A stretch of DNA of 64,000 nt from Escherichia coli (GTDB lineage Bacteria; Pseudomonadota; Gammaproteobacteria; Enterobacterales; Enterobacteriaceae). The notes under the pieces are model-generated. The model had not been told where the DNA came from and did not search any database. It saw only the letters and a list, made by a program, of their open reading frames with translations. Positions 42,591-44,468 of this stretch are shown here, in pieces (the stretch's first letter is position 1; every line of letters starts with the position of its first letter). The DNA is taken from the NCBI RefSeq assembly GCF_003334355.1, contig NZ_QOWP01000018.1; one strand, given 5' to 3'. The position numbers and the translations under genes were made by a program.

Positions 42591-44468
42591 ATGTCTGCAT
42601 CTTCGGTTAAGCCGTTAAATGTTCAATTACCCGCAATAACCCTTATCCTTTTTGCGCTCTGTGTTGGGATATTTTGTTACCTCGCACAATGGATGAGTTA
42701 TGAAGAAGTCGATCAATCCGCACTTATCCATCTCGGCGCTAACGTTGCTTCTCTCACGTTGTCGGGTGAACCCTGGCGTTTATTGAGCAGTGTCTTTCTG
42801 CACAGCAGTGTTTCTCATCTGCTGATGAATATGTTTGCATTCCTGGTGGTGGGGGCAGTGGCGGAACGGATACTGGGGAAATGGCGACTCCTGATTATCT
42901 GGTTATTCTCCGGCGTCTTTGGTGGGCTCATCAGCGCCTGTTATGCGTTACGCGATAGTGAGCAGATAGTCATCAGCGTTGGGGCATCCGGAGCAATTAT
43001 GGGAATAGCTGGCGCTGCGATAGCAACACAGCTTGCTTCAGGTACGGGCACGCACCATAAAAATCAGCGGCGAGTATTTTCTCTGTTAGGTATGGTGGCG
43101 CTGACACTGTTGTATGGTGCCCGGCAAACAGGAATAGATAATGCTTGTCACATTGGCGGCCTGATTGCGGGTGGCGCGTTGGGTTGGCTGAGTGCGCGTT
43201 TATCTGGGCAAAACCGGCTTGTTACGGAAGGCGGGATTATTGTTGCGGGCAGTCTTCTTCTTACCGGGGCTATCTGGCTTGCGCAGCAGCAGATTGATGA
43301 ATCAGTTTTACAGGTCAGGCAAAGCCTGCGTGAAGCGTTTTATCCGCAGGAGATTGAACAAGAGCGACGACAAAAAAAGCAACAGTTAGCGGAGGAACGC
43401 AACGCCCTCAAAGAAACATTACCCGCTCCGGTAAGTCGTCAACAGGCCAGTGGTGATTTGCTCGCTGAGATTGCCGATATCCATGATATGGCGATCAGTC
43501 GGGATGGTAATACGTTATATGCCGCTATTGAAAACACAAACAGCATTGTTGTGTTCGACCTCGGACAAAAGAAAATCCTGCATACCTTTACAGCGCCCAT
43601 AGCGAAAGAAAAGTCAGTCAAACATTGTGGTGGCTGTAAAGATCAGGGCGTCAGATCGCTGGCGTTAAGCCCGGATGAAAAGTTGCTTTATGCGACTTCA
43701 TTTGAAGCGAATGCGTTATCGGTCATTAACGTGGCGACGGGGGAGATTATTCAGTCGATTACCACCGGTGCACATCCTGACAGCCTTATCCTCTCGCGTG
43801 ATGGCAAAAAAGCCTGGGTGATGAATCGCACCAGTAATAGTGTGTCAGCGATTGATCTGGTGACTTATCAGCATGTGGCGGATATCCCGCTGGAGAAATA
43901 CGACGGGACGGGGACGAGCGGTAAACCTGGTGCCTGGGTTATGGCACTTTCCCCGGATGAAAAAACATTGTTGATACCCGGTATGGTCAGAGGTGACATT
44001 GTACGCATCAATACCATCACGCATCAGAAAGAAGACTTTCCCGCAGGTGATGCGCGTGGAACGATATCGGCGATGCGTTTTCGACCTGAAAACGGGGATG
44101 TAATTTTTGCCGACAGCCAGGGGATTTCACGTATAAGAGTTGGGGATCAGCAAGCCAGCATTATGACGCAATGGTGTAGCAGGAGCGTTTATTCCGTTGA
44201 GGGTATTAGCCCGGACGGTCAGTATTTAGCGTTGGTGTCATATGGCTTGCAAGGTTATGTCATCCTGCTCAATATTAATGTCGGGCAGATTGTTGGCGTT
44301 TATCCTGCCAGCTACGTTAATCACCTTCGTTTTTCGGCGGATGGTAGAAAGATATTTGTTATGGCGAAGAACGGGTTAATCCAAATGGACAGGACGCTCT
44401 CGCTTGATCCGCAGGCAGTTATTCGTCATCCCCAATATGGCAATGTGGCTTGTATCCCTGAACCGTAA
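42591..44468 (+). CDS. Rhomboid-family intramembrane serine protease fused to a C-terminal seven-bladed YVTN-type beta-propeller (uncharacterised)
   Basis: 625-aa ORF with AGGAAG Shine-Dalgarno 9 nt upstream. Residues about 15-205 carry rhomboid hallmarks: L1 WR (W62-R63), TM2 H76-x3-N80, GxSG with Ser133, and H187 in an AxHxGG context. A seventh TM helix follows at about 214-233, then seven repeats of an SPDG/SRDG-type propeller blade. Confidence 0.8.
   Translation: MSASSVKPLNVQLPAITLILFALCVGIFCYLAQWMSYEEVDQSALIHLGANVASLTLSGEPWRLLSSVFLHSSVSHLLMNMFAFLVVGAVAERILGKWRLLIIWLFSGVFGGLISACYALRDSEQIVISVGASGAIMGIAGAAIATQLASGTGTHHKNQRRVFSLLGMVALTLLYGARQTGIDNACHIGGLIAGGALGWLSARLSGQNRLVTEGGIIVAGSLLLTGAIWLAQQQIDESVLQVRQSLREAFYPQEIEQERRQKKQQLAEERNALKETLPAPVSRQQASGDLLAEIADIHDMAISRDGNTLYAAIENTNSIVVFDLGQKKILHTFTAPIAKEKSVKHCGGCKDQGVRSLALSPDEKLLYATSFEANALSVINVATGEIIQSITTGAHPDSLILSRDGKKAWVMNRTSNSVSAIDLVTYQHVADIPLEKYDGTGTSGKPGAWVMALSPDEKTLLIPGMVRGDIVRINTITHQKEDFPAGDARGTISAMRFRPENGDVIFADSQGISRIRVGDQQASIMTQWCSRSVYSVEGISPDGQYLALVSYGLQGYVILLNINVGQIVGVYPASYVNHLRFSADGRKIFVMAKNGLIQMDRTLSLDPQAVIRHPQYGNVACIPEP

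Follow-up and report, generated by a model that had tools for sequence, protein, structure and literature searches.

The Escherichia coli orthologue of the rhomboid protease Rhom7 and its predicted periplasmic β-propeller

The stretch of E. coli DNA analysed here (the window, 64,000 nucleotides) contains a gene for a 625-residue protein between gltI and lnt. Sequence comparison identifies the protein as the E. coli orthologue, or allele, of Shigella sonnei Rhom7 (SSON_0610, UniProt Q3Z4D6). Taken as a whole, the gene is very probably best explained as E. coli Rhom7, a quality-control protease with what appears to be an accessory propeller module. The enzyme itself is already known, Rhom7 having been named and tested in S. 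sonnei in 2020. The authors of the earlier note on this DNA knew of no characterised enzyme with such an architecture. This claim falls, because the 95%-identical S. sonnei protein had been both named and tested (PMC7232013), and a named, characterised protein is in essence what the SSON_0610 orthologue represents. New here are the fold of the C-terminal domain, two conserved cysteine pairs, a nearly fixed stalk length, the breadth of the family and a dN/dS of about 0.2. The features of the locus, with the evidence for each in brackets, are the following.

42382..42590, plus strand: upstream region that diverges sharply between the rhom7 and the empty alleles (blastn; alignment; promoter scan)
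42591..44468, plus strand: rhom7 coding sequence, 625 residues and stop (open reading frame; S. sonnei identity; Fig EV1 match; RefSeq)
42627..43199, plus strand: six-TM rhomboid core, residues ~13-203 (PF01694; alignment with GlpG 2nr9; residue check; AF2)
43215..43289, plus strand: predicted seventh TM helix, residues ~209-233 (Kyte-Doolittle; AF2; flanking Arg; Phobius on the S. sonnei protein)
43290..43454, plus strand: predicted charged helical stalk, residues ~234-288 (AF2 helices; length conservation; A286/G288 conservation)
43455..44390, plus strand: predicted seven-bladed YVTN-type β-propeller, residues ~289-600 (TIGR02276; 1l0q; Foldseek; AF2; Cys conservation)
44391..44465, plus strand: C-terminal tail, residues 601-625, with the conserved Cys621 (Cys co-occurrence)
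44475..44495, no strand assigned: GC-rich hairpin, 7 nt past the rhom7 stop (sequence; hairpin scan)

The boundaries of the reading frame were confirmed, and its ATG is the earliest start codon downstream of the preceding stop. RefSeq carries this 1878-nt coding sequence in further E. coli strains too, under the name 'rhomboid family intramembrane serine protease'. The E. coli protein and the S. sonnei protein P0010 are identical at 593 of 625 positions (95%). The 32 substitutions between them and a one-residue gap in the P0010 variant give no sign of a functional difference. Rhom7_Ss, as aligned in Fig EV1 of PMC7232013, is also 625 residues long and agrees with the E. coli protein in its termini and in S133 and H187. 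Common to both proteins are the Ser133/His187 pair, the 7-TM prediction, the C-terminal domain and the gltI-lnt slot. The gene order rihA-gltLKJI-[rhom7]-lnt-corC is the same in the window and in S. sonnei, where the contig continues to ybeY. Full-length near-identity, domain order and chromosomal position all place the protein in the Rhom7 orthologous group.

The properties of S. sonnei Rhom7 were described by Liu et al. (EMBO J 2020, PMC7232013). The protein is proteolytically active, and its S133A and H187A mutants are inactive. It cleaves the TatA model substrate and the HybA, HybO TMD and FdnH TM segments, its targets being TM segments with a helix-destabilising proline. Cleavage is limited to subunits orphaned from respiratory complexes and licenses their further degradation, so that the role of Rhom7 is membrane-protein quality control (PMC7232013). 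Native expression is very low, cleavage is undetectable at the native level, and rhom7 deletion mutants have no phenotype. When over-expressed, full-length Rhom7 cleaves its substrates with no added signal. Truncated Rhom7, whether deprived of the C-terminal domain alone or of TM7 as well, still cuts an artificial substrate (PMC7232013), and the propeller is thus not needed for catalysis. The truncation result excludes the role of an obligate activator and leaves room for substrate selection or inhibition. The fold of the C-terminal domain is not described in that paper, in which the word 'propeller' is absent, and a search of the literature on rhomboids together with β-propellers or YVTN found nothing relevant.

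The earlier note had recognised the rhomboid catalytic signatures in their proper order, and had proposed a seventh TM helix leading to a periplasmic C-terminal domain of seven YVTN-like blades. These proposals hold up, the topology as a prediction. The Pfam profile Rhomboid (PF01694) matches residues 59-201 (E 2.3e-28, 99.6 bits), and an alignment to GlpG of H. influenzae (2nr9) spans residues 13-205 of the core. Residues W62, R63, H71, H76, N80, G131, S133, G134 and H187 were all found at the expected positions. The WR motif (62-63) is in L1, H71, H76 and N80 are in TM2, the GASG motif with Ser133 is in TM4, and His187 lies within the AHIGG motif of TM6. The helices of the core in the AF2 model span residues 15-34, 74-95, 97-122, 132-149, 155-178 and 184-203. 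Across 55 diverse family members R63, H76, N80, G131-A-S133-G134, H187, G190 and G194 are invariant, and the signature residues of rhomboids (W62, R63, H76, N80, G131-A-S133-G134 and H187-I-G-G) are either invariant or at least 95% conserved.

By both profile and motifs the protein belongs to the rhomboid proteases (PF01694 / MEROPS S54). By analogy with S. sonnei Rhom7, it is very probably an active intramembrane serine protease with a predicted Ser133/His187 dyad. It does not fall into the narrower classes: the GlpG equivalogs TIGR04239 (cut-off 250) and NF008155 (cut-off 335) give 45 and 41 bits, respectively, and Rhombosortase TIGR03902 scores 46.9 bits against a cut-off of 84. Nor is it of the GluP/YqgP type, which it resembles in layout alone, as it has no TPR Pfam match, a propeller as its C-terminal domain and a short N-terminus. 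Among matches to the core, the GluP-annotated TPR rhomboids rank after the propeller family, with 33-45% identity over the core.

The seventh helix is indicated by a Kyte-Doolittle peak at residues 210-228 and by an AF2 helix at 209-233. R203 and R209 are located on its cytoplasmic side, as read from the sequence. Counted from the sequence and the helix positions, there are about nine Lys and Arg residues in the predicted cytoplasmic loops versus three in the periplasmic loops. Phobius predicts seven TMDs in S. sonnei Rhom7 (PMC7232013). The predicted topology is 6+1 TM: the N-terminus, with just 12 residues before TM1, is cytoplasmic, TM7 takes the chain to the periplasm, and the C-terminus is periplasmic. 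The four co-varying cysteines of the C-terminal domain fit such an oxidising compartment.

The predicted stalk contains two AF2 helices, 237-250 and 253-276. It is 53-54 residues long in 36 of the 55 family members despite poor sequence conservation, and ends in a conserved P-x-P-V-x4-A-x-G motif (P278, V281, A286, G288), in which A286 and G288 occur in 96% or more of the family members. The domain that follows matches the NCBIfam model TIGR02276 (YVTN repeat) in two stretches, with 59 bits against a cut-off of 27.85. Its best sequence match in the PDB is the YVTN propeller 1l0q (E 5e-25), which is also the top structure found by Foldseek, where the best matches are seven-bladed propellers. 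The AF2 model has a mean pLDDT of 81, with values mostly of 80-96 in the blades. It contains 28 strands, that is, seven blades of four strands each, which match the repeats listed in the earlier note. Strand 289-292 is assigned to blade 7, and the order of the strands in the model suggests that the ring is closed. How the domains of the model are placed relative to each other is uncertain (pTM 0.59; 20-24 Å rmsd versus full-length AFDB relatives). The conserved positions of the propeller are mainly the structural Asp, Gly, Pro and Asn of YVTN repeats, and the domain showed neither a ligand-binding motif nor a cofactor signature.

Two of the cysteines form a Cys346-x2-Cys349 loop between blades 1 and 2, Cys529 is between blades 5 and 6, and Cys621 is in the tail. 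Of the 55 members, 47 have C529 together with C621, and 6 have neither (Fisher p 1.7e-6, phylogeny not corrected for). The C-terminal domain has exactly four cysteines in 43 of the 55 members, and the pairs co-vary. C529 and C621 are likely a disulfide pair, and the co-occurrence of the cysteines suggests two probable disulfide staples of the propeller, C346-C349 and C529-C621.

Several known systems share parts of this architecture. YqgP/GluP of B. subtilis (P54493; Began et al., EMBO J 2020, PMC7231995) represents the nearest class of rhomboids that likewise have 6+1 TM helices and a C-terminal protein-interaction domain outside the cytoplasm. This domain is dispensable for catalysis, and the enzyme acts in quality control (MgtE). 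Unlike Rhom7, YqgP has three TPR motifs in the C-terminal domain and a cytosolic N-terminal sensor domain of ~178 residues (PMC7231995). AarA from Providencia stuartii is a 7-TM protein with 30% identity to Rhom7 and also cleaves the TatA TMD, but it has only 281 residues and ends about 45 residues past TM7, without a C-terminal domain (alignment in PMC7232013). E. coli GlpG has the same catalytic fold and motifs and, in S. sonnei, shares the HybA and HybO TMD substrates (PMC7232013), whereas its N-terminal domain is cytoplasmic, its TMs number six and it lacks a domain in the periplasm. Propellers of the YVTN/YncE type (M. mazei S-layer protein, 1l0q; E. coli YncE, 3vgz; hydrazine synthase beta, 5c2v) have the same fold and repeat signature. 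These, however, are soluble or surface proteins with no protease tether, and the identity of 15-20% does not permit a transfer of function.

The following mechanism can be proposed. Ser133 in TM4 and His187 in TM6 would form the catalytic dyad in the membrane core. TM7 would bring the chain to the periplasm, where the helical stalk of ~54 residues would carry the propeller. As in S. sonnei, the TM segments of orphaned respiratory subunits would be cut by the core and the products degraded further. The propeller may be a selected periplasmic accessory module that is kept at a constant distance from the core. We infer that it would most likely dock the folded periplasmic domains of clients or of partner proteins, and such docking would tune the choice of substrate or its access, but not catalysis. 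A tentative extension of this idea is that the propeller, in its fixed-length, disulfide-stapled arrangement on the stalk, is a receptor that selects native substrates or senses a periplasmic cue.

The earlier note suggested that substrate or ligand capture by the propeller gates proteolysis. It is unlikely that the propeller is such an autoinhibitory or ligand-gated lid, closed over the active site for as long as no periplasmic signal or ligand is bound. Deletion of the TPR domain of YqgP did raise activity 4-6-fold on both substrates (PMC7231995), the activity that Rhom7 retains after removal of the C-terminal domain would agree with inhibition by this domain, and a stalk of fixed length would suit precise placement over the periplasmic face. 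However, what is reported for Rhom7 is only that activity does not require the domain, and the text consulted mentions no gain of activity (PMC7232013), and the over-expressed full-length enzyme needed no added signal. The mostly structural nature of the conserved propeller positions also speaks against a ligand-gated lid.

A propeller that anchors or localises the protein in the envelope, by binding, for instance, to peptidoglycan, to a lipoprotein of the outer membrane or to a periplasmic protease, with Rhom7 acting mainly as an adaptor or scaffold, is quite improbable. A rigid helical stalk of ~40 residues could push the propeller several nanometres off the membrane, and β-propellers are common platforms for protein-protein interactions. 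YqgP serves FtsH as a pseudoprotease-like adaptor, but this function resides in its cytosolic N-terminal domain and not in the extracytoplasmic one (PMC7231995), and the short cytosolic N-terminus of Rhom7 argues against an adaptor of the same kind. Furthermore, no neighbouring gene for a conserved partner or substrate is shared across Pseudoduganella and four metagenomic contigs that carry distant homologues, and rhom7 is a stand-alone gene.

Upstream of rhom7, blastn-detectable homology to K-12 and O157 stops at 42381, with only weak alignment past this position. The Shine-Dalgarno sequence and the lack of an own T-tract terminator are as the earlier note described them. The former is AAGGAAG at 42577-42583, 7-13 nt before the ATG; the hairpin at 44475-44495 has a T-run on the minus (lnt) strand only and therefore reads as an lnt-side terminator. 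The promoter scan gave no plus-strand match to the sigma-70 consensus upstream of rhom7, and no Rfam families were found inside the gene. The expectation that K-12 lacks rhom7 and has IS5 between gltI and lnt was borne out in a K-12 derivative. The description of the site as the locus where K-12 carries IS5 is true only loosely: the insertion point corresponds to ~42236-42243 of the window, in the gltI upstream region, ~140 bp to the left of the presence/absence boundary, and the gene was not replaced by IS5. K-12 shares its 154-bp empty allele with O157:H7, where it is free of IS5. The insertion is thus separate from the absence of rhom7, and displacement of rhom7 by IS5 in K-12 is rejected. 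No rhom7 coding remnants were found in the empty allele, and the 154-bp filler has only weak, uncertain similarity to the rhom7 upstream region.

Among 5426 complete E. coli genomes, rhom7 is present in 3232 (~60%) and absent from 2194 (~40%), K-12 and O157:H7 being among the latter; the gene is thus dispensable. The exact protein was found on at least 1000 contigs. K. aerogenes, too, keeps an orthologue, 50% identical, at this chromosomal position. The same architecture is present in ~50 of the best 150 50%-identity cluster representatives, and also in AFDB entries from Cedecea, Paraburkholderia and Phytopseudomonas. As judged from the sequences, the family comprises at least ~50 diverse clusters with catalytic motifs intact in all, and members with identities as low as 22-31% keep the catalytic residues, the cysteine pairs and the stalk length.

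The four E. coli alleles examined are all intact, with 625 residues, and their dN/dS is ~0.2 (0.14-0.25) in every domain, with 0.14-0.23 for the propeller. These ratios indicate that the propeller is under purifying selection, and diversifying selection on it is rejected. The dN of rhom7 is ~10 times that of gltI and lnt, which points to relaxed constraint on rhom7; its synonymous divergence is similar to that of lnt. That rhom7 is decaying in E. coli, as an accessory gene of marginal function whose propeller has no current role, is highly unlikely: the many genomes without it, the elevated dN, the missing consensus promoter and, in S. sonnei, the very low native expression and the mutants without phenotype (PMC7232013) would agree with decay, but the intact alleles, a dN/dS far under 1 in each domain, the wide occurrence of the exact protein, the K. 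aerogenes orthologue and the conservation in distant members all speak against it.

The analysis yields no new enzyme, and its value is in the description of the C-terminal domain, which the Rhom7 literature searched lacks. The propeller, the four cysteines in two pairs, the ~54-residue stalk and the purifying selection are handles for mutagenesis and pull-downs, and the natural presence/absence polymorphism of rhom7 in E. coli offers ready isogenic comparisons. If the propeller is indeed a receptor, Rhom7 and its relatives would constitute a widespread proteobacterial class of receptor-coupled rhomboids, the physiological targets of which would differ from the respiratory subunits found by over-expression.

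The rhom7 gene is flanked by gltI (divergent) and lnt (convergent), both on the minus strand, and its start codon is the first ATG past an upstream stop. The region of the window around it contains the following elements:

41070-41232, minus strand: full-length sroC small RNA in the gltI-gltJ spacer (Rfam RF00369, 170.8 bits, E 4e-37)
41228-42211, minus strand: gltI as listed by a mechanical ORF search, with a TTG start and 327 aa; RefSeq annotations begin the protein at MQLRKPATAIL (302 aa, from 42136 downward)
42412-42437: AAAGCAA-N7-TGCCAA block upstream of gltI
42591-44468, plus strand: rhom7, 625 residues
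44528-44594: REP-like palindromic element gtaggcctgataagcgtagcgcatcaggcac, between the rhom7 hairpin and the lnt stop codon; its match to Rfam ES036 is weak and sub-threshold (24.8 vs 37.6 bits)

The rhom7 reading frame is present as the earlier note described it, and the identical 1878-nt coding sequence occurs in other E. coli strains under the RefSeq name 'rhomboid family intramembrane serine protease'. Judged by its sequence, the product belongs to the rhomboid family and has every defining feature. W62, R63, H76, N80, the G131-A-S133-G134 motif and H187 were all verified, so that the WR pair (62-63), H76/N80, Ser133 and H187 stand where the earlier note had placed them. The anticipated match to the Pfam Rhomboid family (PF01694) was found at residues 59-201 with an E value of 2.3e-28, and the structure of Haemophilus influenzae GlpG (2nr9) aligns with the core, TM1-TM6 (residues 13-205). 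A seventh transmembrane helix following this core is supported by a Kyte-Doolittle peak at 210-228 and by an AlphaFold2 helix at 209-233. The product is neither GlpG nor a rhombosortase, for both of which the equivalog scores are far under the cut-offs and the domains differ; the domains also differ from those of the GluP/YqgP-type enzymes.

The protein is already known from Shigella sonnei. This organism has two rhomboids, GlpG and Rhom7 (SSON_0610, UniProt Q3Z4D6), the latter named after its seven predicted transmembrane helices and having Ser133 and His187 as catalytic residues; the sequence in Figure EV1 comprises 625 residues, starting with MSASSVKPLNVQLPAITLILFALC and ending with RHPQYGNVACIPEP (PMC7232013). 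The window protein is identical to the S. sonnei database protein (P0010) in 593 of 625 positions, and the S. sonnei gene order, rihA-gltLKJI-[gene]-lnt-corC-ybeY, puts the gene in the same position. On this near-identity and synteny, the window gene is assigned as the E. coli orthologue of Rhom7. Thus, while the anatomy in the earlier note was accurate in all structural respects, its suggestion of a novel enzyme was not borne out, since Rhom7 had been both named and tested (PMC7232013). The exact window protein is present on at least 1000 contigs in public collections, one source calling it 'YVTN family beta-propeller protein'.

Rhom7 cleaves an artificial substrate containing the transmembrane segment of P. 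stuartii TatA, and the S133A or H187A mutation abolishes cleavage (PMC7232013). The same substrate is still cleaved by Rhom7 lacking the C-terminal domain, or lacking both TM7 and this domain (PMC7232013). When expressed from a plasmid, Rhom7 cuts the transmembrane domains of HybO, HybA and FdnH. As full-length proteins, HybA and FdnH are cut only as orphans, free of their partner subunits, in a reaction that requires a conserved transmembrane proline and licenses further degradation (PMC7232013). Native expression of Rhom7 is too low for detectable cleavage, and an S. sonnei glpG/rhom7 double deletion showed no phenotype when assayed for growth, Biolog, oxidative stress and T3SS (PMC7232013). 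The word 'propeller' does not appear in that paper (PMC7232013), and a literature search for bacteria found no paper connecting rhomboids to a YVTN or beta-propeller domain.

The C-terminal part scores 59 bits against the NCBIfam YVTN repeat TIGR02276 (cut-off 27.85) and matches the YVTN propeller of a Methanosarcina mazei S-layer protein (1l0q) by sequence with an E value of 5e-25. The latter is also the top Foldseek match; YncE and hydrazine synthase beta match more weakly. The AlphaFold2 model, calculated from a 20-sequence alignment (mean pLDDT 81, pTM 0.59), contains seven groups of four beta-strands, 28 in all, and places the N-terminal strand 289-292 in the last blade. The proposed seven-bladed, YVTN-like fold is thus upheld.

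When 1.84 billion cluster representatives were searched exhaustively, the top 150 matches included about 50 proteins of 610-690 aa, each matching in one stretch over both domains; giant multi-YVTN proteins make up the other strong matches. A Foldseek search of AFDB50 gave full-length matches from Cedecea, Paraburkholderia and Phytopseudomonas, annotated 'Peptidase S54 rhomboid domain-containing'. No conserved neighbouring genes were found around distant homologues. In an alignment of 55 diverse members, which mostly share 22-31% identity with the window protein, the core residues R63, H76, N80, G131-A-S-G134, D183, H187, G190 and G194 are invariant, and the whole family therefore looks catalytically competent. 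P396 is invariant in the C-terminal domain, where A286, G288, C349, G393 and P572 are at least 90% conserved.

Exactly four cysteines lie beyond residue 285 in 43 of the 55 members. Of the same 55, 51 carry a C-x(2-7)-C loop, formed in E. coli by C346/C349. C529 occurs together with C621 in 47 members, and 6 have neither residue (Fisher p 1.7e-6, uncorrected for phylogeny). The simplest reading is that there are two disulfides, which would independently support a periplasmic location of the domain. The charge distribution, about 9 K+R in predicted cytoplasmic loops vs 3 in periplasmic ones, lends further support. In the K. aerogenes orthologues (P0038/P0039) the C-x2-C loop that lies between blades 1 and 2 has been lost and the C529/C621 pair retained (alignment A1, columns ~411-420), so the small loop disulfide would not be essential to the fold. 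The stalk, from the end of TM7 to a conserved A-x-G motif, is 53-54 residues long in 36 of the 55 members and barely conserved in sequence; AlphaFold2 builds it as two helices (237-250 and 253-276). The conserved length suggests that core-propeller geometry matters.

The gene covers at least 80% of the query 42212-44594 in 3232 of 5426 complete E. coli genomes (megablast), the remainder matching no further than its first 170 bases, which belong to the region upstream of gltI. The median of 12 matched places per genome is probably due to the REP-like element. The earlier note had put the gene at the locus where K-12 carries IS5. A K-12 derivative does have IS5 between gltI and lnt, at TTAG in the gltI upstream region (window ~42236-42243, unoccupied there; 3809/5001 of the K-12 locus L001), but blastn homology of the window to the empty allele extends beyond this junction, to 42381, and O157:H7 lacks both IS5 and rhom7. 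K-12 and O157:H7 have in common a 154-bp filler, 96.7% identical; the lack of rhom7 therefore reflects an old empty allele, near which IS5 inserted independently in K-12. Between the filler and 42382-42545, upstream of rhom7, there is only a weak alignment, and this similarity is uncertain. A 50% identical K. aerogenes homologue in the same gltI-lnt slot and an E. fergusonii member of the window protein's 90% cluster favour ancestral presence and later loss. Transfer into the same slot is possible, as the patchy distribution among enterobacteria leaves room for it.

The AAAGCAA-N7-TGCCAA block is conserved across E. coli with rhom7, the K-12/O157 empty alleles and K. aerogenes (alignment A3), amid sequence that diverges, and may act as a regulatory element in the promoter region of gltI. 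In K. aerogenes (L003 1-1997) gltL is adjoined by a two-partner secretion pair, an ShlB-type transporter and a TPS-domain protein, where E. coli has rihA.

Each of four rhom7 alleles compared (window, LF82, O111:H8 and KE48) encodes an intact protein of 625 aa. In pairwise comparisons dN/dS is 0.14-0.25 overall, 0.14-0.28 in the core, 0.16-0.60 in the short TM7/stalk segment and 0.14-0.23 in the propeller. At synonymous sites rhom7 (0.06-0.16) has diverged about as much as lnt (0.06-0.13). Its dN (0.016-0.039) exceeds the values for gltI and lnt about tenfold. These figures indicate purifying selection on the propeller, with less constraint than on the adjacent housekeeping genes. Between the window and O111:H8 (locus L006; 41228-46133), the low gltI dS of 0.010 beside 0.157 for rhom7 and 0.089 for lnt suggests that recombination had a breakpoint in the interval separating gltI from rhom7.

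The finding as such is already known, and the modest residual question is the propeller. Rhom7 performs Ser/His-dependent intramembrane cleavage of proline-containing transmembrane segments of orphan subunits, and the propeller is dispensable for catalysis, as shown for the S. sonnei orthologue. The propeller would be periplasmic, disulfide-stabilised, carried on a stalk of fixed length and kept by selection. Most likely it docks periplasmic domains of client or partner proteins, and it would thereby influence which proteins Rhom7 cuts at its native abundance. The main rival explanation is a lid, either autoinhibitory or gated, in support of which deletion of the extracytoplasmic TPR domain of Bacillus subtilis YqgP raises activity 4-6-fold (PMC7231995). 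A scaffold or adaptor role is less likely, and so is a marginal, decaying gene, given the purifying selection.
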